64,000 nt of DNA from a virus: positions 32,001 to 96,000 of IMG/VR virus record IMGVR_UViG_3300044953_000102; one strand, given 5' to 3'. Below are positions 27,323 to 61,731 of this stretch, piece by piece. A program made the translations under genes and the position numbers. Every line of letters begins with the position of its first letter. Within the stretch, counting starts at the first letter, position 1. Under the pieces are notes generated by a model. It was given only the letters and a program-made list of their open reading frames with translations. It did not search any database and had not been told where the DNA came from.

Positions 27323-27520
27323 ATGAAAGCAAAAATGCCAATGGTAACAAAAGACGGTAAACAAATACCAGCTTTTGCTGCAGATGGAAAAGGTAAAATG
27401 AAAATGGGTGGAGCTAAAAAACCAAAGATGATGGCTGGTGGTGCTAAACCAAAAGCTATGTATGGTACTGCTATGAAACCTAGTATGATGAAAAAAGGTG
27501 GAGCTAAAAAAATGAAATAA
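27323..27520 (+). CDS. small Lys/Met/Gly-rich basic protein
   Basis: MKAKMPM...MKMGG, MMAGG, AMYG, MKKGG repeats; likely start 27323. Confidence 0.65.
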   Translation: MKAKMPMVTKDGKQIPAFAADGKGKMKMGGAKKPKMMAGGAKPKAMYGTAMKPSMMKKGGAKKMK

Positions 27521-27717
27521 TGGCCACTAAGAAGACAACTAAAAGCAAAGTAAACCAGGCTGGTGTTTATACTAAGCCTGGTATGCGTAAGTCTTTGTTT
27601 GAAAGAATTAAAGCTGGTACAAAGGGAGGAGATCCTGGAGAATGGTCTGCAAGAAAAGCACAACTTTTAGCTAAAGAATATAAGTCTAAGGGTGGTGGTT
27701 ATAAAACTAAGAAGTAA
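27520..27717 (+). CDS. small basic protein (DUF5872-like N-half)
   Basis: YTKPGMR...IKAGTKGGDPGEWSARKAQLLAKEYKSKGGGY. Confidence 0.7.
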   Translation: MATKKTTKSKVNQAGVYTKPGMRKSLFERIKAGTKGGDPGEWSARKAQLLAKEYKSKGGGYKTKK

Positions 27718-27983
27718 TGGCTAAAGATCCTCAGCAAAGTTTAAGAGATTGGTCAGCACAAAAGTGGATGACATCTGGAACTTATGCAAATAAGAAGAAA
27801 GGTTCTTCTAAAGAGGTAAAGTCAAAAGGTAAAAAAAGGTATTTACCTGAAGCTGCTTGGGGTTCTTTATCAGCAGGAGAAAAAGCAGCTACAAATAAAG
27901 CAAAGGCTAAAGGTAATAGTAAAGGAAAACAATTTGTTAAACAGCCAAAGGGTATAGCCCAAAAAGCAGCAAGATTTAGATAG
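27717..27983 (+). CDS. small basic protein (DUF5872-like C-half)
   Basis: QQSLRDWSAQKW...RYLPEAAW..LS..EKAATN.AK..G..KGKQFVKQP. Confidence 0.7.
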   Translation: MAKDPQQSLRDWSAQKWMTSGTYANKKKGSSKEVKSKGKKRYLPEAAWGSLSAGEKAATNKAKAKGNSKGKQFVKQPKGIAQKAARFR

Positions 27984-27985
27984 TT

Positions 27986-28225
27986 ATGGCAATTAAAAAA
28001 ACAACAACAAAATCAACACCAGCTAAGAAAAGTTCTTCAGTTGGTATTTCTATTTTTGGTGGTAACAAAGCAGAAATGAGAAAATGGGAAGTTGAATCTG
28101 CTATGTCTACATTACAAAGAGCTTCTGAGATTCAGAAGAATGCAAAGTTAATGGCAGATGTAAAAAAGATGGCAGCTGAGAAAGCAAAAGAATTTAACAG
28201 TATTGCATCTGGTAAAAAGATTTAA
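27986..28225 (+). CDS. small basic protein
   Basis: 79 aa, Lys-rich N-terminus. Confidence 0.65.
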   Translation: MAIKKTTTKSTPAKKSSSVGISIFGGNKAEMRKWEVESAMSTLQRASEIQKNAKLMADVKKMAAEKAKEFNSIASGKKI

Positions 28226-28227
28226 TA

Positions 28228-28572
28228 ATGGCACAGGCAAAAACTAAGAAAGTAAAAGTTACTGCCGGTGGTGAAAAACATGTAGTATATAAGAAGACTA
28301 CAAAAAAAGGAGAAGGAAAGGTTGGTCATATTATGGTCAACCATCCTACTAAAGATAAAGGACAGTGGGATACTATAGATTTAACTGCTAAAGCAAAAGC
28401 AAAAACAGTTAAACAAGGTGTGGCAGCAACTAGAAAATGGCATAAAGAAAATCCTTATCCCAAACAAAAAATGAAGTTGGGTGGAAGTGCAAAGAGTTGT
28501 TGGCCTGGTTATGAAAAAAAAGGTACTAAAAAGATGTATGGTAAAACATATAACAACTGTGTAAAAAAATAG
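28228..28572 (+). CDS. small basic protein with C-terminal CWxGY...NCV module
   Basis: MKLGG linker then CWPGYEKKGTKKMYGKTYNNCVKK. Confidence 0.7.
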   Translation: MAQAKTKKVKVTAGGEKHVVYKKTTKKGEGKVGHIMVNHPTKDKGQWDTIDLTAKAKAKTVKQGVAATRKWHKENPYPKQKMKLGGSAKSCWPGYEKKGTKKMYGKTYNNCVKK

Positions 28573-28574
28573 TC

Positions 28575-28895
28575 ATGGCAAGTAGTAGAGCACAACAAGC
28601 AGCAATAGCTATCTCAATGAAGAAAGCTGGTAAGAAACCTAAGATGAAATCAGGTGGTTCTACTCCTGCTTGGACAAGAAAAGAAGGAAAATCTCCTTCT
28701 GGAGGACTTAATGCTAAAGGTAGAGCTTCTTATAACAAGTCTACTGGTGGTAATCTTAAAGCTCCTCAACCAGAAGGAGGTCCTAGAAAAAAATCATTTT
28801 GTGCTAGATCTGCAGGTCAAATGAAGATGTGGCCTAAAGCAGCTAAGGATCCAAATAGTAGATTACGATTAGCTAGAAAGAAATGGAAGTGTTAA
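28575..28895 (+). CDS. small basic protein (DUF6321-like)
   Basis: MKSGG linker then TPAWTRKEGKSPSGGLNAKGRASY...KSFCAR...DPNSR...W.C. Confidence 0.7.
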   Translation: MASSRAQQAAIAISMKKAGKKPKMKSGGSTPAWTRKEGKSPSGGLNAKGRASYNKSTGGNLKAPQPEGGPRKKSFCARSAGQMKMWPKAAKDPNSRLRLARKKWKC

Positions 28896-28925
28896 AAATA
28901 TTATTAATTAAAAAATAAATGTATA

Positions 28926-29141
28926 ATGAAAAAGTTAGTAAAAAAACAAGTGGGTGGTCCAGTAAGACCTAAAAATGTACAAAGAACAAGCGGTTCACAA
29001 CCTTTAACAGAATATAGTCCAAAGATTAATAGAGGAGGTGGAAATCTTATACCTGTTGGAGCAACTAAACATCCTAAAACAGGAAAACCTTTAAAACCTT
29101 CTATGAAGAAAGGTGGAATTGTAAAAGGTAAGAAAAAATAA
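28926..29141 (+). CDS. small basic protein
   Basis: KQVGG and MKKGG motifs. Confidence 0.65.
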   Translation: MKKLVKKQVGGPVRPKNVQRTSGSQPLTEYSPKINRGGGNLIPVGATKHPKTGKPLKPSMKKGGIVKGKKK

Positions 29142-29233
29142 TGAAAGGTATGAAAGCTAAACTTACATCTGCTAAGACAGCTAATGATCCTAACTCTAGG
29201 ATCAATAAGTCTTTAAGAAAGTGGAATTGTTAA
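29141..29233 (+). CDS. 30-aa basic peptide, paralogous to the C-terminus of 28575..28895 (not in ORF track)
   Basis: MKGMKAKLTSAKTANDPNSRINKSLRKWNC; TAATG coupling. Confidence 0.5.
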   Translation: MKGMKAKLTSAKTANDPNSRINKSLRKWNC

Positions 29234-29250
29234 ACTAAAAATTATAAGAA

Positions 29251-29916
29251 ATGAAAATGTGTGCTAAATGTGGTGGATCTATGAAAAAAGGTGGTGCTAC
29301 AAAAAAGATGGCTAAAGGTGGTGTGCAAAAAATTGTTGGTATGCCTGGATATAATGCAACTCTTTACCCTACATCTTTTAAGAAAGGTGGTGTTAAGAAA
29401 ATGCAGAGTGGTGGAGAAAAACCTGATAAAAGTGTTTTAAAAAATATACTAGGTTTAATTGGTGGAGGATCTGGTATTTTAGCTGGCACAATATTAGGAA
29501 ATAGAGAAAAGGATTCTGAAAAAGCTAATGAAAGAGATAATAAAAGAATCCAAAGAAAAAGTGATAGAAGGGAAAAGAAAGGTTACAAACCAATCTCTAG
29601 ACCATCATTCAAAAATGGTGGTTCTACTTCTTTTGGTATGCTTTCAGTAAAAGCTGGTGTAGATAAAAATCCTAAACCAACTGCTGCTGATAGAATTGCT
29701 GGAGCTAAGATGAAAAAGAAAATGGGTGGTTCAGCAAAACCTTCTGCTGATCTTAGTGCAAAAACTAAATCTAACATTGCTAAAAAAGCTAGTGCTGGAA
29801 AAGACATTGGTAAGAAAGGTAAAGGTTTTGCAAAAGTAGCTGCTGCTGCAGGTGGTGGTGAAAAAGGTAAAAGAATTGCTGCAGCTGCAATGTGGAAAAA
29901 TATTAAAAGAGGATAA
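29251..29916 (+). CDS. Lys-rich multi-module basic protein
   Basis: Repeated MKKGG/MAKGG/FKKGG/MQSGG/FKNGG/KKMGG linkers. Confidence 0.7.
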   Translation: MKMCAKCGGSMKKGGATKKMAKGGVQKIVGMPGYNATLYPTSFKKGGVKKMQSGGEKPDKSVLKNILGLIGGGSGILAGTILGNREKDSEKANERDNKRIQRKSDRREKKGYKPISRPSFKNGGSTSFGMLSVKAGVDKNPKPTAADRIAGAKMKKKMGGSAKPSADLSAKTKSNIAKKASAGKDIGKKGKGFAKVAAAAGGGEKGKRIAAAAMWKNIKRG

Positions 29917-30614
29917 TGTTAAATAGTACTATTACCATAAAGATTAAACAAAGACTCAATAAACTTGACAGTCAAGATTATGATAACATAACCTGCTGGC
30001 AAGTTGTTGAGGCTTTTAATAAAGCTCAGGTGGAATGGTCTAGGAGACAGCTACATGGTATTAATGTAGTTAAGGAAGGTGATGAACAATCTACTCGTAG
30101 AAAGGATGACCTTCAAAAACTTTTAATTAAAACACCTTTGACTTCAGTAAAGAAAGATCTTTATTATGAAGGAGATGTTCCTGTAAACTATTTACAATGG
30201 AAACGTGTAGACATCTATGCAAAAAAAGAGTGTTGTGATAAAAGAAGAATGACTGTATATCTTGCAGAAGAAGGGAATCTTAATCAACTTCTGAGAGATA
30301 AATCAAAACAACCAAGTTTTGAATGGGCAGAAACATTTGCAACTTTAATCAACGACACAGTACATCTTTACACAAACAATGAATTTGAAGTAGAGGAAGC
30401 ATACCTAACCTACTACAGACAACCGGTAAAAATACAAATTGATGGATGTTCAGATCCATACACCGGGATTACTTCCACTACAAATGTAGATTGTGAATTT
30501 AAAGATGACATAATAGAATTAATAATTGATGAGGCAGTAAGTATTCTAGCTGGAGACATAGAGTCTGGAAACCAATTCTCTAGAACACAAGAATCTGCTG
30601 AACGTAGTAACTAA
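29916..30614 (+). CDS. putative head-tail adaptor/ring protein
   Basis: LNKLDS..FNKAQ...LTYYRQP...IIDEAV pattern; crAss-like synteny. Confidence 0.6.
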   Translation: MLNSTITIKIKQRLNKLDSQDYDNITCWQVVEAFNKAQVEWSRRQLHGINVVKEGDEQSTRRKDDLQKLLIKTPLTSVKKDLYYEGDVPVNYLQWKRVDIYAKKECCDKRRMTVYLAEEGNLNQLLRDKSKQPSFEWAETFATLINDTVHLYTNNEFEVEEAYLTYYRQPVKIQIDGCSDPYTGITSTTNVDCEFKDDIIELIIDEAVSILAGDIESGNQFSRTQESAERSN

Positions 30615-30620
30615 TAAATA

Positions 30621-31238
30621 ATGGAATCAAAACCAAGAACTTTAAAAAGACCAGAAATTGTAAAAGTGCCTCAATCAACTGGCATACCAAATATTGATAA
30701 ACCAAGTACAGGAACATCAAAAGATACTCCTGAATTTAAAACCATGAACCCTCTAATTACAGAGTCATGTGTAGAATATCTTAATTATAGAATTCAACAA
30801 GAAGAATATTCTTCTAGAATCTACATGGCAATGACGATGTGGTTGGATGAAAAAGGATTTAAAGGAGCTGCTGGTCTTTGGAGAAAATATTCAGATGAAG
30901 AACTTACTCATGCTGACATAGCACGTAAGTATCTTTTATCTTTTGGTGTACAACCATTAACTCCAAGATTAGACCAACCTCAACAAGATTTTCCAGGAAG
31001 TCTTCCTGAGATTATTCAGTTATCTTATGAGCATGAGATAGAAGTATCTACTCAAATTAAAAAGATGGCTGATCATGCACTTGGCATGAAAGATCATATG
31101 TTATATGAATTATGTCTTGGTTATCTTAAAGAACAAGTTGAAGAGCATGATAAAATGCAAACATGGGTTGACAAATTAAAAACATTTGGTACAGATCCAT
31201 TAGCTCTTAGATTACTTGATAATGATATGGCCGGATAA
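30621..31238 (+). CDS. ftn: non-heme ferritin-like protein
   Basis: LNYRIQQEEYSSRIY.AM..W, EELTHA, EHE, YLKEQVEE ferroxidase pattern. Confidence 0.85.
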   Translation: MESKPRTLKRPEIVKVPQSTGIPNIDKPSTGTSKDTPEFKTMNPLITESCVEYLNYRIQQEEYSSRIYMAMTMWLDEKGFKGAAGLWRKYSDEELTHADIARKYLLSFGVQPLTPRLDQPQQDFPGSLPEIIQLSYEHEIEVSTQIKKMADHALGMKDHMLYELCLGYLKEQVEEHDKMQTWVDKLKTFGTDPLALRLLDNDMAG

Positions 31239-31313
31239 TTTTTATAATAATTTGGATAATTAAAAACTTTTGACTATATTATAGTATATATTTATTAACT
31301 AAAACAAAAAACA

Positions 31314-32663: not shown

Positions 32664-32685
32664 TAGAACATAGTAATAACTCATA

Positions 32686-32720
32686 AGGAGAGTGAGAGTC
32701 TATCTCTCCTCTCCTTTTTT
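32686..32720 (+). terminator. intrinsic terminator
   Basis: AAGGAGAG.GAGA...TCTC.CTCTCCTTTTTT. Confidence 0.75.
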
Positions 32721-32731
32721 ATTATAAAAAA

Positions 32732-33274: not shown

Positions 33275-33292
33275 ACTCTAAAAACCAACAAA

Positions 33293-41000: not shown

Positions 41001-41002
41001 TT

Positions 41003-49500: not shown

Positions 49501-50505
49501 TCTGCAGGTAATAAATGGTTACATAATTGGATACAACATCCTACAACACAAATGAAAATTCAAGCTGATATGTTGGATGTAATAAACAATAAAAATTTAA
49601 ATCCTTACAGGATTAAATATGAAACACCAAGATATGGAGATATTGTTCTCAATCCAGAAGAACAATATACAGAAGCATTAAAGATTGCTCAAAATTATAT
49701 GCCTGATGCTAAACCATATTCTTTTGAAAATTTCTTTTCTAATTTAAAAGAGGATAAATTAAATCCAATGTTTGATGTTATGGGTATAACATACAAACAT
49801 CAGTCAGATCCTATTATGCGTAGTTTATATAGTCATGCATTTTTTAAACCAAACAGTACTCAAATTGATACTGACTATAAACCTTTTAAACATTATGGGA
49901 CATTTATTAGAAGAAGTCCATCATTTAGTCCTTATCAAAAAGAATTAGTAACAATACATGAAGGTACACATGAGTGGATAACAGATAAATTGTTAAAAGA
50001 AACTGGTCAAAAAGATTTAATCTTAAGCAGTATTGATCCAGAAATTAAAAAACTTTTTGATAAATGGTCAGTAGATCGTGAAACAAAAGATTTAACTGAG
50101 GATGAAAAAAAGCTTGCTTATCTATCAAATCCAACAGAAGTGCATGCAAGAATAATGGAATTAAGAAGACATAATAATTTAACTCCTTCTGATTATGTTG
50201 ATGAAAATATGGCAAAAAAATTTCTTGAACAAATTAAAAATAAAGAAATATCTGGCGGCAAAGAATTTGCAACAGTTTTAAAAAATGATCCTAAAACATT
50301 ATCTAAATTAATGAATGATTTATATAATATTTCAATTCCTTTGGGTGTTGGTATTGGAGGAGCATCTTTATTAAAAAATCCATACAAAGAAGAATCACCA
50401 ATTGGTGGATATAAAATGGGTGGAGAGTTTGAATTAGGTGATGAAGTAGATGAAGTTACTATGAAAGAATTAAAAAAATTAGGTTTTACATTTGAAAAAA
50501 TATAA
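46504..50505 (+). CDS. giant putative internal virion polyprotein: SET domain plus two zincin domains
   Basis: HGKGLF...NHS...EITTNY; HEFGH...EMHAR; HEGTH...EVHAR. Confidence 0.75.
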   Translation: MYNKKILIDALKKLGSAKAPAQKKDIVVGSNNPTEMFAMQKGFSPYDKKLNVKKSNIHGKGLFTEQPLKKGELIGLAHVNNQPTPIVGNFHNHSENNATALSIRRGNQRYLVAAKDLEPGTEITTNYRLQPELGQPEDFLHSINETPTARRGGSAPKLPNKKNSRAYSRSLDATNRLFAEHPWFKKSKSRKNKIYDPNAKYYQDGGEQGCPEGYTYNPETKRCTRKNTNCPEGYFFDAQEGRCKSKAYREKFELYNKGTKITPTEEEESYSYWPDDLTLKYLDKDIMNNPEGSEVNRPFLINPIKTIGIYNPEREYEEDIDDRYLADTYVNVYPDLNYQVVVDPSKPKGYNADKSIYYVPDENNFEFEKFKQYKKLKEIEKENLSNLAKYPNLITKEWQEDYKYRPQDDPKLFLDAEYYGQGLPGYYTNLTNMPFDKYKNSIKREFNTGCKDCKYHYGISHEYNDDYNINLINLGHVKKGLKSNDPSYDIRNIKEYDYVDLPDESIIPRFDLESADTEPPIYREGDPSMLVPHMRLEPGKKKSKKHRGRLMYGKGQKYKWTTYRQTKDLEFGTHKTNRPIPALVQKFTGYDPKYYQGYDKEVGDETEFVPGEIERAEQEGRKVNFKGAATLRDLKKQKEYERQWLEYQKQKDEVRQRNEDYLKQYNITPEEYEQYYGPFRRGGQLPKAQYGIPQEFYQNWYQNRVMPTPEGQKLLDKIRPEALERSRQMIPYIYSDKLKLDDAGYYDTKTQEIILNKFLPEAQIEATKQHEFGHHIQAGNKFYNVLDKPHQFLVEQNIVEPEKISTGNSEWDEKLKENYDYVTQPDEMHARVMTLRRLAGFQPNQVITEKDLKDYFNRVKEAGEALDPDIEDLRGVTKGNQSIVNLLNDMVSVPSNREDLQVAKYGVELDLTEDEIKKYVDRGYVVEDISIPSLTKMKKGGLPCPPFCSPLIELSKGLSSIAQNIPKTNFLGRGIANTATILDEGLGQAFLAKSNADAISAGNKWLHNWIQHPTTQMKIQADMLDVINNKNLNPYRIKYETPRYGDIVLNPEEQYTEALKIAQNYMPDAKPYSFENFFSNLKEDKLNPMFDVMGITYKHQSDPIMRSLYSHAFFKPNSTQIDTDYKPFKHYGTFIRRSPSFSPYQKELVTIHEGTHEWITDKLLKETGQKDLILSSIDPEIKKLFDKWSVDRETKDLTEDEKKLAYLSNPTEVHARIMELRRHNNLTPSDYVDENMAKKFLEQIKNKEISGGKEFATVLKNDPKTLSKLMNDLYNISIPLGVGIGGASLLKNPYKEESPIGGYKMGGEFELGDEVDEVTMKELKKLGFTFEKI

Positions 50506-50507
50506 TC

Positions 50508-53099
50508 ATGGCTAAGTATAGAATTACCAGTATACCACAGTCTTTACCAAAAGCGCAATTAGGTTTATTTAAAAATAAAAATACATCTCCATTATGGGAA
50601 GCTCAATCTGTTCCAGTTTTTCCAGATCAAGAATCTTCTATTGAAGATGTTATGCCTAGAAGAACTGCTGAAGAACAAGCTAATATTTTTCCTATTATAA
50701 ATCCAGATTTGTCAGGTTCTGCTGAATATGATTTTTCAAAAAGTTGTCCAAATCGTCAAATTTTTTATAGAGGTCAATGTGTTAGTGAAGATGTATTAAA
50801 TGTAATTCTTCAAAGAGAACAAGAAACTGAAAAATTTCAAGCTAAAGAAAGTTTTAGAAATCAACAAATTGCACATAATAAAATGCTTGATGATTTGTAT
50901 ATAAAAAATATGCAAATAGCTCAAGAAGAAAAAAATCTTGCTCAAAAAATTAAACATGAAGATTATGTAAAAGATTTTAAAAAATCAAAAAAATCTACAC
51001 AAATAAAACCATTAGACGTATTTGATACAAATACATTAAGTGAAATGGTTCCAGTTATTGGGGATGATGGAAAAGTAGTAATGGATGAAGAGACTGGTAA
51101 ACCAAAAATGCAAACAAGAAGAGAAGCACTTAGTTCACAATATCTTTTAATTGATAATGATGAAAATAGTAACATTGGTTCAACTGGAACTACTTCTGCT
51201 TGGCCATTAGCAGTTGTTGCAGATAGAATTTACAATAGTGGATTTCAACCAACACAGTTTAAAACAATATGGAAATTTAATGATGACCAAGTAAGACAAG
51301 TAAAAGAACAAACTGGTTCATTAATGGAAAATGCAAAAAATGCATATGATAATGAAGCATATAATAGAATTTTAAAAAAAGCACTTGAGCTCAACATTAC
51401 ACCAGAAGAAGCTGCAAAAATTGTTGCTGGAAAAAATTCTAGTTTTGGATATGCAGAAAGTCTAACAAAAGAATATGCTCCCAATGTTCAGAAAATTATA
51501 AATACAGCATTTGAAGATCTTATGAAAAAAACAGGATCAAGTGCTGATGCAGAAAAACTTAGTCCTACTCAAAAAGAATTATTGCTTAATTTAGAAGAAA
51601 CAAAGGATCAACAATTCTTAAATATAAATGGTGGTCATTATGTAACAGATAAAGATGGTTATAAAATATGGGTTCCTCCCGGAGTAGGAGCAAATATAAT
51701 GCCACTACCTGCTGAAAGTACTGCAGTAAGAAATAAGATAGGTGCATGGACTACAGATCCTGCAACAGGTAAAAAACAGTGGGTTGCACCTAATAATAAT
51801 ACAGCTTATGAAAATGCTCAAGCTGAAAAACTAATTAAAGAGCAAGAAAATATGGTTGCTCAAATACAATATGCTGCTTTAAGAAGATTAATTGAATCTC
51901 CAGATGTTACTGATGCAGAAAGATTAAAAATAGCTAACGATCCAAAAAAACTTGAAAAACTAATAAGTGAATATGTAAATTGGTCTTATTCACCTGAAGG
52001 AGAATTTGATCCACGTAGAGAACAAACTCAAGGTGAATATAGATATACTCCTGGACATTTAAAATCAGATTTTAAAATAACTCCTGAAGGTGCACAATGG
52101 TCTCCTGGTCGCTATGGTCAGGGAAGATATATTGATGGTCCTGTAAATATGGTTTATCCTGAGAAATATGTTATGGGACCTGGTGCAGGAGTTCTTGGTG
52201 GAGGTCTTAGATTACTTAATAAACCACTTGCTAGTTTTATTGGAAGTAGTGCTGCACCTTGGTTAACTGCTGGTAATTTATTTGGTGCTTATACTATATA
52301 TAATGCAGTTAGACCAGAAGGAACTATTTCAAGTGCATATGATAAATTTTCAGAGGGTGATTATAAAGGTGGTGCTTTAAAAAGTCTTGAAGCAGCATTG
52401 GAGTTGTTTCCCACTGTAGGTATTATTTCAAAAGGTGCTAAATTATTAAAGTCAACACCAAGATTTTTTGAATATACTGCTCCTTCAGGTAGAACTTTTG
52501 GTCTTGGAAATGCAAACTTACCAAATATAACAACTGCAGAAAAACCTGAGCAATTTCTTAGTTTAATGACAGGTAGTAATGCTTCTCAGTTAAAAAATTT
52601 ATATTCAACAGAAGCTGATATTATAAATGCAGAAAAAGCACTTGCTAGTGGTCAAGCATTTCCAAGATATACATTTACTCATCCTGCAAAAACACAATTA
52701 CAACTTGAACAAGCATATCAGAATTTAGATCCTAAAGAATTTATGCTTAAGAATTTAGGATTTAGATTAGGAGAAAGTTCACCTATTGAATTTGGAACTT
52801 TTAGTCAACCTACAAAATATTCAACAAAATTTGGAGAATTTACTTTTGGCCCTAAAAGATTTTATCCTGCTAAACTTGAGAGTATAGATTTTAAATCACC
52901 CACGGTCTATGATGAAGGTTCTGTAAATATGTTAGGTCTTAAAGAAGGAGGTTATCTACCACAAGCTCAAGGAGGGTTAATTGCATTAGCTAAAAATTTA
53001 TCTAAAGGTTTAGCAATTCCAGTTTCATCTACAGTGTCTGCATTAAGAAAAATACCAGCAACATATACTGCAATTGCTGAAGGTGGTAATTTATTTTAA
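50508..53099 (+). CDS. giant putative internal virion protein (probably continues into 53095..53421 by +1 shift)
   Basis: LPKAQLG, LKEGG, AQGG motifs; TM-like GAGVLGGG segment. Confidence 0.7.
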   Translation: MAKYRITSIPQSLPKAQLGLFKNKNTSPLWEAQSVPVFPDQESSIEDVMPRRTAEEQANIFPIINPDLSGSAEYDFSKSCPNRQIFYRGQCVSEDVLNVILQREQETEKFQAKESFRNQQIAHNKMLDDLYIKNMQIAQEEKNLAQKIKHEDYVKDFKKSKKSTQIKPLDVFDTNTLSEMVPVIGDDGKVVMDEETGKPKMQTRREALSSQYLLIDNDENSNIGSTGTTSAWPLAVVADRIYNSGFQPTQFKTIWKFNDDQVRQVKEQTGSLMENAKNAYDNEAYNRILKKALELNITPEEAAKIVAGKNSSFGYAESLTKEYAPNVQKIINTAFEDLMKKTGSSADAEKLSPTQKELLLNLEETKDQQFLNINGGHYVTDKDGYKIWVPPGVGANIMPLPAESTAVRNKIGAWTTDPATGKKQWVAPNNNTAYENAQAEKLIKEQENMVAQIQYAALRRLIESPDVTDAERLKIANDPKKLEKLISEYVNWSYSPEGEFDPRREQTQGEYRYTPGHLKSDFKITPEGAQWSPGRYGQGRYIDGPVNMVYPEKYVMGPGAGVLGGGLRLLNKPLASFIGSSAAPWLTAGNLFGAYTIYNAVRPEGTISSAYDKFSEGDYKGGALKSLEAALELFPTVGIISKGAKLLKSTPRFFEYTAPSGRTFGLGNANLPNITTAEKPEQFLSLMTGSNASQLKNLYSTEADIINAEKALASGQAFPRYTFTHPAKTQLQLEQAYQNLDPKEFMLKNLGFRLGESSPIEFGTFSQPTKYSTKFGEFTFGPKRFYPAKLESIDFKSPTVYDEGSVNMLGLKEGGYLPQAQGGLIALAKNLSKGLAIPVSSTVSALRKIPATYTAIAEGGNLF

Positions 53100-53421
53100 T
53101 ATAGGTTCAGCAAAAGGTGTTCCTGGTCGTGCTACAGATCCATTAACTAATACCGCAAGAGGAACTGGTTTACATACAAGACAATGGATAAGTGGTAAGG
53201 GAAATCAAATAGGCACTATTGATCCTACTTTTAGATTTACGGATATGAACAAAATGAGTGCTAAAGATTATTTAGAAATGGAAAGAGAAAAAGAAGACTT
53301 AATAAAGCTTTTTAATACTGGTTGGAGAGGTCATTATAAAAAAGGTGGTGTTTCAATGAAACTTTCTAAAAAAGAAATTGATCAATATATCAAAGATGGA
53401 TATATAGTTGAGGATGAATAA
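53074..53421 (+). CDS. probable C-terminal part of the preceding protein
   Basis: Weak TTG start, overlaps the upstream ORF in the +1 frame; ends YKKGG plus shared C-terminal tag. Confidence 0.55.
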   Translation: MLKVVIYFNIGSAKGVPGRATDPLTNTARGTGLHTRQWISGKGNQIGTIDPTFRFTDMNKMSAKDYLEMEREKEDLIKLFNTGWRGHYKKGGVSMKLSKKEIDQYIKDGYIVEDE

Positions 53422-53479
53422 ACTTTATAAGTTTATTGATTAAATTAAAATTTAGTATATTTAATATATAATATATCTT

Positions 53480-56400
53480 ATGAAAAAATCTGTAAGAATA
53501 AGAAAAGCACTTCCAGGAGAAAAACCAGGGTATTATAATAAGACAGCCAAGTTTTTGAAAAAGGCTCAAATGGGCATGGAAGTAAATTCACCAAGTAATG
53601 ATCCTCAAAGATTAAATGCAATATATACTAATGTATATGCTTCTTTAATGTCTGACATTACTCCAGATGTAATTTATAGTTCATTAATTGGTGAGTATGC
53701 TTTAGATGAGAATACTGCTCTTATGATATTAAGATCTGCATTAGGAAAACTTGCAGAAGAAGGTAAAATTGATCCAGAGTCTTTAGAGGGTGGTAATTCA
53801 CAACAAAATCAAAAACAAGAAGAACAACCTAGTGAAACACAAGACAGAGAAAGTCAAGAAGAATATGATCAACGCATGTCTGAAGATGCTGAACAAGATG
53901 AGTTGGCAATGTCAGATGAAGGTTATTATGATGAAGAAGAAGCAGCAAATAATGATAATTCTCATTTAGATACCGAACAAGAACAACAACAACAGGCTTT
54001 TGCATTTGGTGGTTACTATGATACGGGTGGTGAGTCAGATGAAGATTATTCAGATTACTATGATGATTCAAATCAAAGTTCTTCTCCAGAAAATGCTGTT
54101 ATAAATCAATATAATAATCCTGGTCAAAATAAAATGAAGAAACCTTTTTCTATGGAAGATCTAATAAATATGACACCAGGTATTCAAGGTACTCAATCTG
54201 TACCAGGTATAGAAGATTATTTAGGAGATTATAGACCTATATCAGAATCATATGGGTCAATGGATTACTTACCACAAGCACAATGGGGAGGATTAAGTTT
54301 ACTACCTGGTTTAACAAGACAAGTTGAAAAAGGCATAGAAGCTTTTAATAAAGGCTATAGTGCAATTAGGGGTTTAAGTCCAATGACTAATGTATCAGGT
54401 ATAAGAAAAGCACTTCCACTTGCTACATTAACAGGAGAAGCTTTAACTAAATTACCATATATTGGAAAAAAATTAGCTCCACAATTAAAAACCACATTTA
54501 CACAAAACAGAAATCATTTATGGAAGGTTTTAAATGGTGCTGGTCCAAATCAAGAAATTTTTGGAAATGTTGGAACTCGTGCTAATCCTGATGGTAGTTT
54601 ACAAGTAAATAGATTATTACTATATCAAGATGATGTAGCAAAAATAGTTAGTCAAATTGAAGACTCTGGAAGTCCTGCTGCAGTTATAGAACCAGATGGT
54701 TCAATGAGTTGGGATTATAGCAAAACACTTCCTGAAAGAAAAGTATTTGAGCTTGGTGAAGTACAACCAATGGCTGCAGCAGATGGTTTAGTAAGTGGTG
54801 TATATCCCATGAATTCTAAAGTAACTGGTGGAGTGGATGATAAAGGAAATAAATTTTTTGAGATTTCACATAAATTTGGCCCTAATCAAACATTACCTTT
54901 TGGATCAACATCAAGTAAAGCAAAAGAATTAACATTTAAAAATAGATTTTATTATAAAACTGTAGTTGATCCTGCTACTAATCAAACATCTATTAAAGTG
55001 TTTGGACCATTGGGAGAAGAATTAACACCTGGCACTCAAACTAAATTTAAAATACAAAGACCTTTTATACCATCTGTATTAAGAACTGTAGCAGAAAAAT
55101 TTTTGCAAGATCCTAATACACCTTTTCCAAATTTTCAAGTAGATTTTGGAAGAAATCCAAACGGTCCTTTTACAAGTAGGGTTGGTCGCGTAGATATTAC
55201 TTCTACTCCACCATCTACAGTAGATAGGTTAAGTACTAGGGGTAAAATTGGTAGAGGTTTAGAAAATTTTGCTTTAAGTACTTATATACCACAAATATTT
55301 GGATTAGGTAATCCATTAAGAACATCTCCAAAAAATGTAACTCCATTAAAACTTCCAGTTCTTGGATATACAAGTTCTGCATTAGGTCCTAATGTTGTTA
55401 ATCCAGCACTTGAAACTGGTGTTGCTAGTGACATTGCAAATGCAATGAACTATAAATATAGAATAGGACGTAATGCATTAATAGGAGCAGGAGGATTAGG
55501 TTACTTAGGGTATAAGACTTGGGATGCTTTTTATAATCAGTGTCAATGTGATAATCCAACAGGTAGAAATTATATGCCTAAAGATGAGTATGGTAATTGT
55601 CCTTGTGGAGGAGATGTTGATGATAAAAGAATACTAGATCCTACAGAACAGCCGACTGTTCAAGATATTATGAAGTTTTTGGATGAGCAGGGTCTTTATC
55701 CTACTGAAAAAGATTACTATAGACTTAAAGGAAAAAATAAAAGAAGTAAAGCTGTTGATTATAAAACTGGAGGTATAACAGAAAAACAATTTGTAAAAGC
55801 ATTCTCTTCTAAATTCCAAGATGGTGGACCTCAAGATCAATCATTGGGTAAAGGTAAAAGAATGGATACCCTTACTAATGATGTAGAAGCTAGAAAAGAT
55901 ATCTTTAAAAGTAAACTTAAAGATAATTCTAATGTAGCTCTTACAAAAGAAATTTATAAAAATGCACAAAGTAATCCTCAGATCTTAAACATGTTAATGC
56001 AAGATGGTCCTAAAGAAAATCTTGCTGAAGATACAGGAATGCAAACAGCACAATTTGGAGGAGTTCCTAATTGGTATACTGGATATAACACAGCTTTATC
56101 ACCAAAAGAGTATAGAAAGTTATATAGACAAATGAAAAGAATGATACCAAGAGGTCTAGATATATCTAGAGCTAACATGGCATCAAACTTTTATGACAAT
56201 AGATTTATGCAGCCAGGTTACGGTACAGTAGTTACTACACCTGAGTATATGAATATGCTTGCTATGTCTTCATTACCATTGTACAAAAGTGCAGCCAATG
56301 TTTATGGAGGTGGTAGAAAACCTTCTGAATTACAAGCATATGAAGCTACAGCAATCAATAATGAAAAAGGAATACCATTACTTCCTGAAATGACTCCAGA

Positions 56401-58309
56401 CTTTATTGATTCTCCATTAGTAAGGGGTTCAGGTGGTCAATTTATCGCAGGTGATGAAAATCTTTTGACATATGATCAAGGAGGTTTTGTAGATATGGAT
56501 GCTGAAAATCCTTTAGTAAGATTTATCTACGGTGGAGATGAAACCGGATACTATGAACCAGAAGATTTACCAATGGCTCAATTTGGTCAAAATATAATGA
56601 ATAAAGATCTTGAGCAAAGAGTAGTAGGGGATAAATTATCATATGATGATTGGGTTGAGGGTGAAAGAGATGATTTTGCAACAACACATCCTGGTGAAGA
56701 TTTTGATACTTGGAAAGCTGGTCAAACTGGTCAAGATGATTATAAAAAATATGAAGATTTTTATGGTAAATCTTTATATGATTATACAAACTTTGATGAT
56801 CCAAATGTAAATCCTAATCCAAATAATAATCCAAATAATAATACACAAAATGGTAAAAATTGTCCTCAAGGATATGTTTGGAATGCAACATATAATGCAT
56901 GTATACCGGTAGCTCAAGTTACTTATAATCCAAGAGTTGTTAGAGGTCAATCAGGATTATTTAGAAATTTAGCTCCTTGGAATCCAGCATTTGGTTATGC
57001 AGGATCTTGGACAAAACAAATGTCATTACCATATCAATTAGGTTCTCGTAATCCTTATATGGGTCAACTTACCGGTGCACCTGCTGCACGATATGTTACC
57101 AAAAAAGGAATATTTGGAAAACCTAAAAAATGGATTGATATTTATGATGTTGATGCAGCAGATGATATTTTAAGTAATTACGATTATGTGGGTCCAGAAA
57201 ATATAAACTCATATGATAATAATAATATGCAGCAAACTAGAAAAAAAAGTTCTGGTGATAGACTAGATAGACGGATTGCAAGATGGGATAGAAGAGCTGC
57301 AAGAAATGAAGAGGAGTATGAACCTATGGAAGGTGCTATTACAAACTATGAAAACCCAGATGATTTTTATAATGCAATAAATCCTGTTTCTAGAGAAGAT
57401 GCTCAATTCTTAGGTGCTGGTTATACTGCTTCTGAAGATTATAAAAATAAAGGTAAAGTAAGAACAGTTAGAGATGCAGAAGGTAACTGGTATGATAGAG
57501 ATGATAAAATGATACCTGGTAAAAAAGCTCCTTCAGAAGTTCCTGGATATTATGATAAAAAAAGTAATTTAACAAAAGATGAACTTAAGTTACTTGAAAA
57601 TTTAAAATATTTTAGACATGGAGGTTTACATACATATGGGCCTGGTGGTGCTAATGATCCTAATACTAATCCACCGGCTTGGATGTCAGGTCCTAATCCA
57701 AAACAATATGGCACATATGATGGAAATATGATAAGTCAAGCACCAATGGGTACAACCAAAGGTTTTGATGAGTTTGGTAATCCTGTAAGTCAAGCACCAG
57801 CATTTGGTATTCAACCACCAGCAGCTGCATCACCAGAAAACTATTATGTTAAAGATCAAAATCCAATTAAAAGAAATTTAGTTGGGGTAGAAAATAAAAG
57901 AAAAGACATGTTTAATGTTGATTCAGAATCTTTTCTAAATCAAACTAATGCATTTGCAAGAGGAGCTTTAAATTTATTTGATCCTGAGAAAAAAAGACAA
58001 TGTGGTCCTGGAACTACTTGGAACTCAAGCACACAAACATGCCAACCTACAGATGCAATGGATATCTATGCTACAGCTACTGAACAAGATAGAGGTGACT
58101 GGACAGATATAGGTTCTAAGGCTGGTCTATATAGATATGATCAAGAAGGACAAGATAGAAGCAGTAGAGCAACCTTTGGTCAGTATGGTGGATACATGCA
58201 AGATGGTGGTTTTTATGACCCATATTACGAAGAGGATGAAGAAGTAATTATGACTCCTGAAGAATTAGAACAATTCTTGGCATCTGGAGGACAAGTTGAA
58301 TATTTATAA
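53480..58309 (+). CDS. giant putative internal virion polyprotein
   Basis: 1609 aa, many xxxGG/AQxG linkers, shared C-terminal tag. Confidence 0.75.
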   Translation: MKKSVRIRKALPGEKPGYYNKTAKFLKKAQMGMEVNSPSNDPQRLNAIYTNVYASLMSDITPDVIYSSLIGEYALDENTALMILRSALGKLAEEGKIDPESLEGGNSQQNQKQEEQPSETQDRESQEEYDQRMSEDAEQDELAMSDEGYYDEEEAANNDNSHLDTEQEQQQQAFAFGGYYDTGGESDEDYSDYYDDSNQSSSPENAVINQYNNPGQNKMKKPFSMEDLINMTPGIQGTQSVPGIEDYLGDYRPISESYGSMDYLPQAQWGGLSLLPGLTRQVEKGIEAFNKGYSAIRGLSPMTNVSGIRKALPLATLTGEALTKLPYIGKKLAPQLKTTFTQNRNHLWKVLNGAGPNQEIFGNVGTRANPDGSLQVNRLLLYQDDVAKIVSQIEDSGSPAAVIEPDGSMSWDYSKTLPERKVFELGEVQPMAAADGLVSGVYPMNSKVTGGVDDKGNKFFEISHKFGPNQTLPFGSTSSKAKELTFKNRFYYKTVVDPATNQTSIKVFGPLGEELTPGTQTKFKIQRPFIPSVLRTVAEKFLQDPNTPFPNFQVDFGRNPNGPFTSRVGRVDITSTPPSTVDRLSTRGKIGRGLENFALSTYIPQIFGLGNPLRTSPKNVTPLKLPVLGYTSSALGPNVVNPALETGVASDIANAMNYKYRIGRNALIGAGGLGYLGYKTWDAFYNQCQCDNPTGRNYMPKDEYGNCPCGGDVDDKRILDPTEQPTVQDIMKFLDEQGLYPTEKDYYRLKGKNKRSKAVDYKTGGITEKQFVKAFSSKFQDGGPQDQSLGKGKRMDTLTNDVEARKDIFKSKLKDNSNVALTKEIYKNAQSNPQILNMLMQDGPKENLAEDTGMQTAQFGGVPNWYTGYNTALSPKEYRKLYRQMKRMIPRGLDISRANMASNFYDNRFMQPGYGTVVTTPEYMNMLAMSSLPLYKSAANVYGGGRKPSELQAYEATAINNEKGIPLLPEMTPDFIDSPLVRGSGGQFIAGDENLLTYDQGGFVDMDAENPLVRFIYGGDETGYYEPEDLPMAQFGQNIMNKDLEQRVVGDKLSYDDWVEGERDDFATTHPGEDFDTWKAGQTGQDDYKKYEDFYGKSLYDYTNFDDPNVNPNPNNNPNNNTQNGKNCPQGYVWNATYNACIPVAQVTYNPRVVRGQSGLFRNLAPWNPAFGYAGSWTKQMSLPYQLGSRNPYMGQLTGAPAARYVTKKGIFGKPKKWIDIYDVDAADDILSNYDYVGPENINSYDNNNMQQTRKKSSGDRLDRRIARWDRRAARNEEEYEPMEGAITNYENPDDFYNAINPVSREDAQFLGAGYTASEDYKNKGKVRTVRDAEGNWYDRDDKMIPGKKAPSEVPGYYDKKSNLTKDELKLLENLKYFRHGGLHTYGPGGANDPNTNPPAWMSGPNPKQYGTYDGNMISQAPMGTTKGFDEFGNPVSQAPAFGIQPPAAASPENYYVKDQNPIKRNLVGVENKRKDMFNVDSESFLNQTNAFARGALNLFDPEKKRQCGPGTTWNSSTQTCQPTDAMDIYATATEQDRGDWTDIGSKAGLYRYDQEGQDRSSRATFGQYGGYMQDGGFYDPYYEEDEEVIMTPEELEQFLASGGQVEYL

Positions 58310-58317
58310 CATAACCA

Positions 58318-61300
58318 ATGATAAAAGTTAGAATTAAAAAGTTACCTCAAGCAAGAACTGGATACCAAGTTCAAGGAGCATTAGTAAATGACGTACCTGC
58401 TATGGGAGGTGCAGACTATAATGCATACATTGGTGCACCAAAACTTCGGGAAAGTAAATACATCAAAGCTGTCCCTAGAGATGAAGCAAATCTAGAAGCA
58501 GAAGGTAGAGAAACAGTATATGGAGACATCAATGGTGATGGAATGCCAGAACATAAAATTATTGTTGGTCCAAGACATGCTCAAGGTGGAGTTCCTTTAA
58601 ATCTTCCAGAAGATACTTTTATTTTCTCTGACACAAGAGCAATGAGAATAAAAGATCCAGAATTACTAAACATGTTTGGTAAAGGAGGTACAAATAAATC
58701 TTATACTCCGGCAGAACTAGCTAAACAATACGATGTACAGAAGTATAGAAAAATACTAGAAGATCCTGAGACAGATGCAATAGAAAGAAAGACTGCAGAG
58801 TTAATGATCAAAAAGTATGTTGTTAAACTAGGCTGTCTTGCTCTTGCACAAGAATCTATGAAAGGATTCCCACAGGGTATCCCAGCAGTAGCAAAACCAT
58901 GTATGGAAGCTAGAGGTTTAACTGAGCAAGATATTCTACCTAATAAAGAAATATCTGTTCTAAATGATCAGTTAAAAAAACAAATGGAACAAGAAGGAGC
59001 GACAGATGAAAACATACTTCAACAAGCTGAAGAGATGAATGATGGTAATCCTGTTGCACAACCACAAGAAATGGGTCCTCCTCAAGAACAAATGGAAGCT
59101 CCTTCACCAGAAGAAATGATGATGTATAGTGGATATAGAAGAAGATTAAGAAGAGCACAAGAAGGAATGCAACAACCATCTCCTGAAGAAATGGCAATGA
59201 TGCAACAGCAACAACAAGGTGGTCAAGATGAAATGGGTGAGATAATGAAAGAAGTTGCAAATGCTCTTCAAAGAGGTGCTGATCCTTCTGAAGTTGTTAT
59301 GAGTTTATTACAGAACAACATTCCACCAGATGCAATTGTACAAATATTTACACAACTTGGTGCTGAACCACAACAAGCTGCTCAAATAGTACAGCAAGTA
59401 ATAGCACAGGCCCAAGGTGGTGGTCAAGAACAAATGATGCCACAAGAACAACCTATGTCAGAAGAAGAAGCAATGATGATGCAACAACAACAGATGCAAC
59501 AACAAGCTCCTCCTATGGCACAGTATGGTATGACAATGGGTGGTTATGATATGCCATTCTATGATATGCCAGAAGCTGCTTATGGTATGGCAATGGGTTC
59601 TGGTCAATCTCAAAACTATCAAGGAAGGCCTAAAAGAATTCCTGGATCAGGTCCTATGTTTCCATTAACTAAAGCAGGGAATGGAATAACTATTGATGCT
59701 TCTAATATGACTAATGAACAACTTCAAAGAGCTATTTGGGATGCACAACAAAAAGATAAAAATGCTGAAATTACTGTAACTCGTAAAGATGCTAATGGTC
59801 AAGTAAAAACACAAAAACTTAAATCATCAGGATTTATGATTCCTGAAGGTAAGGATATTACAGATTTAAAAGGTTTTCCAGATACACCTGCAGGAAGGGT
59901 TGCTGCAGCACAATATTTATTAATTGAAGAAAACTTAAATAATTCTACAGTTAAAGCTGAGATTATTAAAAATACTAAAGAAGCACTTGAAAATCCAGAT
60001 GCTTGGACAGGTAAAGGTGGTACAAGAAATGCTAATAATACTTGGTCAAATAAATATGGTGCATTACCTTCTGATGAGGAAATTATAAAACAAGCATTAA
60101 ATCATCAAAAAAGAAATTTGATGTTTGAAGCTAATGAAATTGATCCGCAATTATTTTCTGATGTTGGTCATAAACTTGATGATGTTGATACTGTACTTAA
60201 TAAAGGGTACGTTAATCCAAAAACTGGACAAAAATATACAAGAGCTGAGGCAGAAGCAGCACTTAAATCTCTTAATGTTAAAGGTTTTACTAATGTTGCT
60301 GCAATGTCAAATATACTAGGAGTTCCTTTAGACCCTAAAGGAAAAGATAGAGTTCTCCAGCAAGGAACAATGCACGGATATGCAAAAGCATATCAAAACT
60401 TTTCATCTGGTGCTTATAACTCTAATCCAGATGCAAAATATGCTATGGATAATTTTTTGGGTAATGTAAGTTTAGTTCACTCAGGTGCGGATGATGAAAC
60501 TTCAATGGGAGCTTTGTATGGATCAATAGGTAATAGAATATCTCCTCTTGATGATAAATATGATTATTCAGATAATAATTGGTATCAAAAAAATTCTGGC
60601 AGATTAGTGAAAGGTAAGTTTACTACTTATGGAGATACAACAGCTGGTCATAAATATATGGTTGGTAAAAGAAATCTAGAATTTGAAGATATTCCAGAAA
60701 GTGGACCTTGTCAATGTGAAAAAGATAAATTACCTGATGGATCACCGGACCCTTCATATAAACCAAAAGATGCTCAAGGTAATTGTACTTGTGATCCTCC
60801 AAAACCTAAAGATTGTCCATGTCAAAAATCTGATGGTACAGTAATAAACATGACTGCAAATGCAGATGGTACTTGCCCGCCTTGTACAGAACCTAAAGAT
60901 ATACCTGTACCAGGTCCTCCTGCTGAATGGTGGTTACAAGATACAATTAAAACTACCGGTGCATTTGGAGATTTAATGGGAGTTAAAAAGTATATGCCGT
61001 GGGCAGCTCCTGCAAAACTTCAAACACCAAGACCTACATTCTTAGATCCAACAAGAGAACTTGCTGCTAATGCAGAACAAGCAAATATACAAACTGCAGG
61101 TATGGCACAGTTTGCTGGACCACAAGCACTATCTGCAAGATCATCAAGTGTTCAAGGTCAAGCTTCTAAGAATGCTGCAGATATACTTTCTAAATATAAT
61201 AATGCTAATGTTAACATAGCAAATCAGTTTGAGATGAAAGCTACAGACATTAGAAACCAGGAAAGTATGTTGAATCAAGCAACACAGCAAAGATTGTATG

Positions 61301-61731
61301 ATCAAAATACAATTGCTAATCAACAGTTTGATAATGCTAAGTTGGCAATGAGAAACAACTTAAGAAATTACTATACTAACGCAATTACCAATAGATGGAA
61401 AACTGATGCATTAAATCAGATGTTCCCGAACTATCAAGTATCTCCAGGAGTAGGTGGACAAATGTATTATCAACCTACAGCAAAAACAACTAATCCTTCA
61501 CAAACTTCAGGAAAAACTAAAGAAGAATGGTTTAAGTGGTGTAAAGATAATGGTGATCCAAATCCTTCTGCATGTGCTAATAGAATGATGAGTGGTAATA
61601 ATTCAAATTCAGGAGGTGGAGCAGATCCAAATATGGTAAATACTATGTATGGAACAGCTAGAGATGGTGGAGAAATGTTTGAAGATGGTGGTTTTGTTTA
61701 TATTGATTCATGGCTTCCATTTATCATGTAA
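58318..61731 (+). CDS. giant putative internal virion protein
   Basis: EAEG.E...GPRHAQGG...FIFSD N-domain; Q/M-rich linker; N/Q/A-rich coiled-coil C-terminus. Confidence 0.75.
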   Translation: MIKVRIKKLPQARTGYQVQGALVNDVPAMGGADYNAYIGAPKLRESKYIKAVPRDEANLEAEGRETVYGDINGDGMPEHKIIVGPRHAQGGVPLNLPEDTFIFSDTRAMRIKDPELLNMFGKGGTNKSYTPAELAKQYDVQKYRKILEDPETDAIERKTAELMIKKYVVKLGCLALAQESMKGFPQGIPAVAKPCMEARGLTEQDILPNKEISVLNDQLKKQMEQEGATDENILQQAEEMNDGNPVAQPQEMGPPQEQMEAPSPEEMMMYSGYRRRLRRAQEGMQQPSPEEMAMMQQQQQGGQDEMGEIMKEVANALQRGADPSEVVMSLLQNNIPPDAIVQIFTQLGAEPQQAAQIVQQVIAQAQGGGQEQMMPQEQPMSEEEAMMMQQQQMQQQAPPMAQYGMTMGGYDMPFYDMPEAAYGMAMGSGQSQNYQGRPKRIPGSGPMFPLTKAGNGITIDASNMTNEQLQRAIWDAQQKDKNAEITVTRKDANGQVKTQKLKSSGFMIPEGKDITDLKGFPDTPAGRVAAAQYLLIEENLNNSTVKAEIIKNTKEALENPDAWTGKGGTRNANNTWSNKYGALPSDEEIIKQALNHQKRNLMFEANEIDPQLFSDVGHKLDDVDTVLNKGYVNPKTGQKYTRAEAEAALKSLNVKGFTNVAAMSNILGVPLDPKGKDRVLQQGTMHGYAKAYQNFSSGAYNSNPDAKYAMDNFLGNVSLVHSGADDETSMGALYGSIGNRISPLDDKYDYSDNNWYQKNSGRLVKGKFTTYGDTTAGHKYMVGKRNLEFEDIPESGPCQCEKDKLPDGSPDPSYKPKDAQGNCTCDPPKPKDCPCQKSDGTVINMTANADGTCPPCTEPKDIPVPGPPAEWWLQDTIKTTGAFGDLMGVKKYMPWAAPAKLQTPRPTFLDPTRELAANAEQANIQTAGMAQFAGPQALSARSSSVQGQASKNAADILSKYNNANVNIANQFEMKATDIRNQESMLNQATQQRLYDQNTIANQQFDNAKLAMRNNLRNYYTNAITNRWKTDALNQMFPNYQVSPGVGGQMYYQPTAKTTNPSQTSGKTKEEWFKWCKDNGDPNPSACANRMMSGNNSNSGGGADPNMVNTMYGTARDGGEMFEDGGFVYIDSWLPFIM

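Follow-up and report, generated by a model that had tools for sequence, protein, structure and literature searches.

The Locus and Its Two Motifs

The window, that is, the whole 64,000-nucleotide stretch analyzed here, spans bases 32001–96000 of IMG/VR record IMGVR_UViG_3300044953_000102 (114,943 bp, CheckV completeness 96%) and carries two short amino acid motifs, PhixxGG (with Phi being F, Y, M and sometimes A) and LPxAQxG, that recur in two sets of open reading frames (ORFs) of its virion module. Judged by its genes, the source virus is an uncultured crAss-like phage, the assignment being drawn from a large terminase (phrog_6681), a portal (phrog_6547), a crassvirus HK97-type major capsid protein (PF23898) ring proteins 2 and 1 (PF25702 and PF24228, respectively) and the muzzle protein described below. 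Nothing in the GenBank phage collection matches the window at the DNA level; by capsid protein the nearest cultured phage is Leptolyngbya phage Lbo-JY46 (28% identity), and relatives in IMG/VR number in the hundreds. The first ORF set comprises eight small, very basic ORFs at 27323–29916, after the post-capsid gene and ahead of the tail genes, a gene position that suggests their products to be virion core proteins. The second, at 46504–61731, lies 3′ of the muzzle gene and comprises four large ORFs and one ORF of 58 residues. Because the muzzle protein (41003–46504, +, PF25731, itself with a motif count at chance) precedes them, we regard these as cargo genes: the motif-rich ORFs follow the muzzle gene directly, within the tail module, as crAss-like virion cargo does, with gaps of −1 to 58 nucleotides save for one of about 145 nucleotides between 53099 and 53245, and their products are most likely carried in the virion. 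Beyond them lie motif-poor giant ORFs whose position matches that of the RNA-polymerase-type cargo genes of phage crAss001. The cargo ORFs do not match PF25725 (crAss_CARG1), for which the sole match in the genome, at 12 bits (E 0.01), falls in another ORF, and a PDB sequence search with two of them returned no match.

The motifs were counted as [MFY]xxGG, AQxG and PxAQxG, and the counts compared with those in shuffled versions of each protein (2000 each). As can be seen from these counts, the eight small basic ORFs contain 11 [MFY]xxGG where 1.1 are expected, and the four large cargo ORFs contain 16 where 3.6 are expected, whereas the remaining 101 ORFs (27,666 residues) hold 11 against 10.9 expected, which is chance level. 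AQxG is found 12 times in the cargo ORFs (1.7 expected) and nowhere else in the genome (3.95 expected), and PxAQxG six times in the cargo ORFs against an expectation of 0.11; no shuffle of the small or the cargo set reached the observed number. Since the motif was defined after viewing the window, counts in relatives weigh more than these. The excess is reproduced there: 111 unique small basic ORFs from 19 related loci contain 83 [MFY]xxGG (7.6 expected), and 150 representatives of 50%-identity clusters, retrieved solely by a profile of the C-terminal tail described below, contain 572 (115 expected). Across 20 related loci the cargo ORFs are rich in motif and the adjacent muzzle and polymerase-like ORFs are not. 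A test for enrichment in both gene sets over the other ORFs, and in homologous genomes, had been proposed by an earlier first-pass annotation of this DNA, which had also called the motif genome-wide; the motif is instead restricted to 13 ORFs of the virion module. The instances listed there are present, namely ARRGG at 46948, YQDGG at 47107, FRRGG with LPKAQYG at 48538, MKKGG at 49312, YKMGG at 50410, LPKAQLG at 50553 and LKEGG at 52938, the series in ORFs 53480–58309 and 58318–61731, and the small-protein set MKMGG, MMAGG, MKKGG, MKLGG, MKSGG, MAKGG, FKKGG, MQSGG and FKNGG. Two entries need amendment: YKKGG exists but belongs to the 58-residue ORF rather than to a giant protein, and AKYG, found at 49210, is a lone, weak match with a single glycine.

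A context logo places L (58%) at −3, P at −2 and K, M, Q or R at −1 before AQxG, and F, Y or M at −3 before GG, with no residue preference after GG. The glycine codons of the motif are a GGT/GGA mix as elsewhere, synonymous codons vary and 15-mers are not conserved; this ordinary codon use with synonymous variation argues for selection at the protein level, and the same codon mix and non-conserved 15-mers rule out a DNA-level recombination signal. Internal methionine start codons are likewise ruled out as an explanation, as F and Y fill the same position. The cultured phages Lbo-JY46 and Flavobacterium phage Fpv1 have muzzle homologs and show no clear motif excess, so the motif appears to be restricted to a lineage. 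No description of it was found in the literature that could be searched.

Seams and Terminal Tags of the Cargo ORFs

A simple grammar emerges when the ends of every cargo ORF, in the window as well as in 20 related loci, are compared: LPxAQxG opens a module and PhixxGG closes one, so that exchangeable modules are marked off by the motifs. Where a protein truly begins or ends, tags accompany the motifs. The N-tag is short and basic (MKKxVRI.., MAKYRIT.., MIKVRIKK..), follows the pattern M-x-K-[YFV]-[KR]-[VI] and precedes LPxAQxG or YKAGG, as in MAKYRITSIPQSLPKAQLG, MIKVRIKKLPQARTG and MKKRVRIYKAGG. The C-tag is acidic; it follows PhixxGG and runs through an acidic stretch into a terminal ..EEIxxFxxxG[GY]x[VI]Ex[IL], with variants such as ..EEIxxFxxxGGxVEYL; examples are YKMGG...LGFTFEKI and MQDGG...QFLASGGQVEYL. 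Between consecutive cargo ORFs, a C-tag nearly always has an N-tag after it: a C-tag is followed by an N-tag in 24 pairs and in 7 more with an obvious MKKQVRIRK tag that the pattern missed, an N-tag lacks a preceding C-tag in only 2, and 40 pairs carry neither tag. At E ≤ 1e-3 a profile of the C-tail retrieves 307 cluster representatives; of the 150 of these taken for analysis, almost every one has its match ending no more than 2–3 residues from the last residue, in proteins of 48 to 1,923 residues, and full-length matches start with an N-tag, MKKRVRIYKAGG or MKKSVRIRKALPGE..KKAQMG. Inside ORFs, compact junctions read end motif then start motif, and two related loci, L087 and L092, show what becomes of the tags on fusion: homologs of the C-terminal region of ORF 53480 and of ORF 58318 are there joined in one ORF, the C-tag of about 35 residues and the N-tag of 12 residues are both gone, and the junction retains MKMGG in L087 and only SKIGG in L092.

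The four large cargo ORFs of the window, all on the + strand, display this grammar in turn. Cargo ORF 1 (46504–50505, 1333 residues) contains a SET match, two HExxH zincin sites, four [MFY]xxGG and two AQxG; its internal junction FRRGG-Q-LPKAQYG (48538–48576) joins a module end to a module start, and it closes with YKMGG and the acidic C-terminal tag ..LGDEVDEVTMKELKKLGFTFEKI (50410–50505). The SET match (PF00856, E 2e-5, above cut-off; phrog_34170) lies near the N-terminus at residues 29–128, and one of the two HExxH sites shows DUF6782/phrog_87 metalloprotease similarity below cut-off. Through the SET match, cargo ORF 1 may deliver a protein lysine methyltransferase with the virion. The earlier statement that motifs bracket the SET domain and each zincin stands in so far as SET (88–127) and the HExxH sites (770 and 1152) lie between motif sites at 149, 679–691, 937 and 1303, though at some distance from them. 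With SET and two HExxH sites, cargo ORF 1 combines several unrelated enzymatic modules in one giant, probably virion-associated protein, as do the polyvalent proteins, a class that Iyer, Burroughs, Anand, de Souza and Aravind reportedly defined in 2017 as giant injected proteins of phages and conjugative elements in which enzymatic modules, zincin proteases and methyltransferases among them, are combined in an order that varies. We are not aware that polyvalent proteins have been described with a conserved peptide at the seams or with paired terminal tags.

Cargo ORF 2 (50508–53099, 863 residues) opens with the N-terminal tag MAKYRITSIPQS and LPKAQLG (50508–50564) and has the internal junction LKEGG-Y-LPQAQGG (52938–52976). 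It is followed by the 58-residue ORF (53245–53421, ATG at 53245), which consists solely of YKKGG and the C-terminal tag ..LSKKEIDQYIKDGYIVEDE. Because relatives ending in a C-tag run to about 1200–1530 residues, and because of this tag-only ORF, cargo ORF 2 looks truncated or split, with its C-tag left behind as a mini-ORF (region 53074–53421). Cargo ORF 3 (53480–58309, 1609 residues) holds 20 GG dipeptides, nine [MFY]xxGG and four AQxG, between an N-terminal tag MKKSVRIRKALPGE.. reaching as far as KKAQMG (53480–53575) and MQDGG, an acidic stretch and the C-terminal tag ..TPEELEQFLASGGQVEYL (58196–58309). Cargo ORF 4 (58318–61731, 1137 residues) starts with MIKVRIKK and LPQARTG (58318–58362), has folded blocks with motif-bearing low-confidence linkers between them, and finishes with ARDGG, FEDGG and a conserved hydrophobic end ..SWLPFIM (61657–61731). 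In the window (61687–61731) and in relatives alike, such a hydrophobic tail after PhixxGG always ends the last motif-rich cargo ORF (..SWLPFIM, ..NVFPFMFT, ..MLPPFIL); it is a third kind of terminal tag. A conserved 'MATYLQGVTD' ORF follows 56–65 nucleotides after the hydrophobic-tailed cargo ORF.

We examined where the motifs fall relative to folded regions in an AlphaFold2 prediction of ORF 58318–61731 based on a 12-sequence alignment. Folded blocks are predicted at residues of about 64–207, 305–364, 456–717 and 898–1003, separated by segments with a predicted local distance difference test (pLDDT) score below 50, and 9 of the 10 PhixxGG or AQxG sites lie in these segments, to which 49% of the residues belong (binomial P ~0.01), the only exception being FGKGG at residue 120. 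The check for disordered linkers proposed in the first-pass annotation thus places the motifs of this ORF in low-confidence linkers. In the alignment the Q/M-rich linker is variable, yet G408 never changes, A401, Y403, G404, M407 and G409 reach a conservation of 90% or more, and AQEGM, AQYGM and M[ST]MGG are retained in 8–10 of the 12 homologs at 34–77% identity; conserved islands of this sort within variable linkers are the signature expected of a functional short linear motif. The motifs also coincide with borders of homology: when the cargo ORFs of the window are compared with those of relatives by BLAST, 31% of block ends lie within 10 residues of a motif as against 12% for random positions (P ~0.0005), and residues 761, 861 and 1001 of ORF 53480, the sites of YKTGG, AQFGG and YDQGG, are examples of such block borders. 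The suggestion that these are mix-and-match proteins thus holds, with motifs at joints, at the ends of homology blocks and at points of ORF fusion in relatives. We best explain PhixxGG and LPxAQxG as short linear motifs that selection maintains at the protein level and that are placed in disordered linkers of probable cargo.

Motif Placement in the Small Basic Proteins

The eight small basic ORFs, again all on the + strand, are put together in mosaic fashion from mini-modules, namely DUF6321, a CWxGY..NCV unit and a KGKQFVKQPKG unit. In order, they are an ORF of 65 residues (27323–27520) with MKMGG, MMAGG and MKKGG; a second of 65 residues (27520–27717, phrog_17747) that is GG-rich and lacks PhixxGG; one of 88 residues (27717–27983, phrog_14910), a homolog of pelagiphage HTVC033P gp39, without motif; one of 79 residues (27986–28225); one of 114 residues (28228–28572), in which MKLGG immediately precedes a 'CWxGY..NCV' mini-module shared with cyanophage Syn9 gp114; one of 106 residues (28575–28895), in which MKSGG immediately precedes the DUF6321 (PF19846) module; one of 71 residues (28926–29141), which ends in ..MKKGGIVKGKKK, of a 'KKGG plus basic tail' type frequent in relatives; and one of 221 residues (29251–29916) with 11 GG, five of them [MFY]xxGG. 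In relatives many small ORFs terminate in KKGG followed by a basic tail of 6–9 residues. The mini-modules occur as separate small genes in HTVC033P (gp36–40) and in Prochlorococcus podovirus P-SCSP1b, in the latter right 3′ of the capsid gene, and fused in Syn9 gp114, and PhixxGG is absent from the mini-module borders in the proteins of all three. The motif is therefore ruled out as an intrinsic part of the mini-modules; in the lineage of the window phage MKSGG and MKLGG stand exactly at their borders, and since the same mini-modules occur elsewhere without PhixxGG, the motif is a lineage feature laid over widely shared modules. DUF6321 and the other mini-modules (window 27717–28895) belong to a widespread set of tiny basic phage proteins.

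Comparison with Known Systems

The closest parallel is found in crAss001, whose cargo proteins C1 and C2 (gp45 and gp46; Bayfield et al. 2023, PMC10172136) are long, largely disordered and encoded directly 3′ of the muzzle gene. In gp45, GG-rich joints (SAYGG, KAFGG, NAFGG, FAYGG) separate ordered pieces and the termini are basic: a basic N-terminus with FDTGG is followed by SAYGG at 206, FAEGG at 260, KAFGG at 329, NAFGG at 424, FAYGG at 559 and a KKAKGG basic tail, with 21 GG dipeptides in all. Unlike the proteins of the window phage, gp45 shows no evident LPxAQxG start motif or acidic C-tag, and there is no detectable sequence homology between gp45 or gp46 and the window cargo ORFs, which leave PF25725 unmatched and gave nothing by tblastn. 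The crAss001 structure paper makes no mention of a motif, tags or cleavage (PMC10172136). A second parallel is offered by gp041 of Cellulophaga phage phi17:2 and gp40 of phi4:1, cultured phages, which on reading without alignment share N-terminal and Q/N-rich C-terminal modules with ORF 58318–61731 and carry FQAGG, YQNGG, FQIGG and FQSGG at module borders (4 against 0.6 expected); they differ in having fewer motifs, no LPxAQxG and motif-free neighbors (gp036–040 and gp042). The remote homolog in phi17:2, gp041, owes its annotation as a virion structural protein to its similarity with gp40 of phi4:1. Since the motif thus occurs in cultured phages, in phi4:1/phi17:2 and in looser form in crAss001 gp45, it can be tested at the bench.

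Processing systems in other viruses offer a further comparison. Prohead processing in T4, phiKZ and SPN3US (PMC5694885, PMC10052503) likewise involves internal or ejected head proteins with short terminal peptides and a repeated motif at propeptide boundaries, but there the motif is LxE or [SAG]xE and the enzyme that cuts it has been identified, an S77-type protease, to which the window genome has no match. Adenain, which cuts (M/L/I)xGG-x, and pS273R of African swine fever virus (ASFV), which cuts GG-x, share with the present motif the Gly-Gly with an upstream hydrophobic residue in basic core-type proteins; the spacing is off by one residue, no CE-clan protease was found, and the virus lineages are unrelated.

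Proposed Uncut Seams and the Alternatives

We favor, tentatively and with rather less than even confidence, the reading that the motif seams stay uncut and act as flexible joints and as recognition handles for co-packaging of cargo and its module-by-module ejection. The reader of the seams would be a virion component or else the neighboring cargo protein; cargo would be chained covalently within ORFs and non-covalently between them, packaged together and extruded through the tail one module at a time, and the motif repeats of the small basic proteins would provide multivalent binding to the same reader. This reading is supported by an enrichment that is limited to the small basic and the cargo ORFs and is reproduced in relatives, by the conserved islands in low-confidence linkers, by the coincidence of homology-block ends with motifs, by the pairing of the tags and their loss on fusion, by the like style of crAss001 gp45 and by the lack of a protease match. 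Several points weigh against it. Only about a third of the homology-block ends coincide with a motif; the structural evidence is mostly low AlphaFold confidence, a mere proxy for disorder, and a second model (ORF 53480 residues 1–1199, 6 sequences) was too poor to add to it, with a mean pLDDT of 36 and 83% of residues below 50. The reader protein and its binding are hypothetical, and the case for the small basic proteins being in the virion is their gene position. A divergent or host protease is possible, and crAss001 gp45, expected to be as abundant as the portal, is not detected at full-length size (bands of at least 70 kDa; see below), which leaves room for processing.

The alternative that survives best, which we nevertheless consider unlikely, does away with a reader: GG would be a passive, flexible turn, and its flanks relics of ancestral protein ends left after gene fusion or splitting. 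Internal junctions such as FRRGG-Q-LPKAQYG and LKEGG-Y-LPQAQGG do look like a C-side motif with an N-side motif behind it, fused and split states are both found in nature, and motifs are gained and lost between relatives. A scar, however, would be expected to decay, yet AQ, GG and the aromatic residue hardly change within linkers that otherwise vary, the [MFY]xxGG excess persists across 50%-identity clusters, and synonymous codon variation indicates selection on the protein. Closely spaced repeats of the five-residue pattern also occur in unrelated small basic proteins that have no domains to hinge.

A maturation protease is the next candidate, and one that we likewise consider unlikely. On this account the motifs are cut by an unrecognizable phage-encoded or host-derived enzyme, which after packaging would remove the tags and release modules and small basic peptides. 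The parallel would be T4 gp21 and its capsid-targeting sequences, the prohead proteases of phiKZ and SPN3US, or adenain. In each ORF the tags do lie beyond the outermost motifs, a placement expected of targeting peptides that are taken off; a motif is found 8–30 residues from the N-terminus in three of the four cargo ORFs; and the motifs sit in accessible linkers. N-tags ending in YKAGG or LPxAQxG occur, and might be counterparts of the prohead-type propeptides that end in a cleavage motif. The multi-site small basic proteins moreover resemble adenovirus core precursors. Six-frame searches of the 96%-complete genome with ten family models were made for such an enzyme, and Peptidase_C5 (PF00770), C48 (PF02902), C39 (PF03412), Prok-JAB, M23, S78 (PF04586), S77 (PF03420) and sortase (PF04203) gave no match at E ≤ 1. 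Clan CE cysteine proteases are thus unmatched by PF00770 and PF02902, the C57 and C63 models not being among those run, and a prohead protease gene is unmatched by PF03420 and PF04586. The 418-residue ORF before the capsid gene is scaffold-like at best, its atlas look-up giving scaffold and Prp neighbors at chance level. A weak Transglut_core match (E 0.003) contains three stops, is in the wrong frame and was set aside as noise. Pfam scans of ORFs of at least 60 residues (66 ORFs plus the giants) yield as candidates only a DUF2201 metallopeptidase/VWA pair, PhageMetallopep, the zincin-like sites in cargo ORF 46504 and, as an adaptor, ClpS.

The motif itself fits known cleavage signals poorly. 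Its hydrophobic residue stands three before GG and would be P5 for a cut after GG, whereas the adenain consensus has it at P4, and the lack of a residue preference after GG also argues against a protease site. Motif contexts do not fit the double-glycine leader consensus LSxxELxxIxGG, and LPxAQxG is two residues longer than the sortase signal LPXTG and internal.

Data on crAss001 bear on the same question. The virion model contains gp45 residues 214–245 and 425–552, with a single chain placed through the portal (PMC10172136); both pieces begin just after or at a GG joint, and because the piece 425–552 is modeled continuously through NAFGG (424–428), this joint is uncut. Peptide-mass fingerprinting of the matrix-assisted laser desorption/ionization (MALDI) peak lists from the crAss001 virion gel (PMC6235969, supplement 14) gave gp47 and gp50 in band 3, gp49 in band 4, the portal in band 5, and gp26, gp22, gp25 and gp23 in bands 6–9; since gp47, gp50 and gp49 are found at full-length gel positions, the RNA-polymerase-type cargo is full length, a further point against a protease. 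In the same gel neither gp45 nor gp46 rises above decoy level in any of bands 1–9, and the failure to detect gp45 in bands of at least 70 kDa, the 70–100 kDa range included, where the equally abundant portal is seen, would be in keeping with one. Taken over the missing protease match, the spacing and the continuous gp45 joint, the cutting at GG proposed by the first-pass annotation is unsupported; its other option, capsid targeting, stands nearer to the reading of uncut seams as handles and is left open.

Direct, multivalent binding of the motifs to the HK97-fold shell, in the manner of encapsulin cargo-loading peptides and in place of contacts with cargo, portal or tail, is very unlikely: the shell is that of an HK97-type crassvirus capsid protein, and there is a resemblance in a short, Gly-rich, repeated motif with one hydrophobic anchor in disordered regions and in the presence of a gene for a ferritin-like protein, a classic encapsulin cargo, in the same module, but the ferritin-like protein itself lacks the motif and the ordered gp45 pieces of crAss001 touch portal and ring proteins and not the shell.

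A broader proposal, possible though we would sooner argue against it than for it, is that motifs and paired tags together make up a dedicated assembly code of environmental crAss-like phages, working either through an unrecognized GG-directed protease, which would trim tags and release effectors and DNA-condensing peptides, or through head-to-tail docking of cargo for ordered ejection; if true, this would be a new mechanism of virion cargo organization. After the crAss001 structure it is still a question by what means crassviruses choose their several megadaltons of cargo protein, bring them into order and eject them. The seam-and-tag grammar supplies concrete, mutable sequence elements for packaging, ordering or processing, and allows cargo genes and module borders to be recognized in many uncultured relatives.

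Other Genes of the Phage

Three further genes deserve mention. Outside the window, at about 104400–114943 of the record, an open frame of some 3,514 residues runs off the contig end and is missed by ORF callers that require a stop; it contains neither PhixxGG nor AQxG. The ClpS adaptor homolog (PF02617, 49 bits) is encoded at window 1600–1854 on the − strand, and no link between it and the motif was found; ClpS recognizes N-terminal F/Y/W/L degrons. The ferritin-like protein (PF00210, E 2e-25) is encoded at 30621–31238 (+), within the virion structural module, and has an N-terminal extension of about 50 residues; at the position of its gene, relatives carry a gene of about 170 residues that, on reading of the sequence, looks Dps-like.

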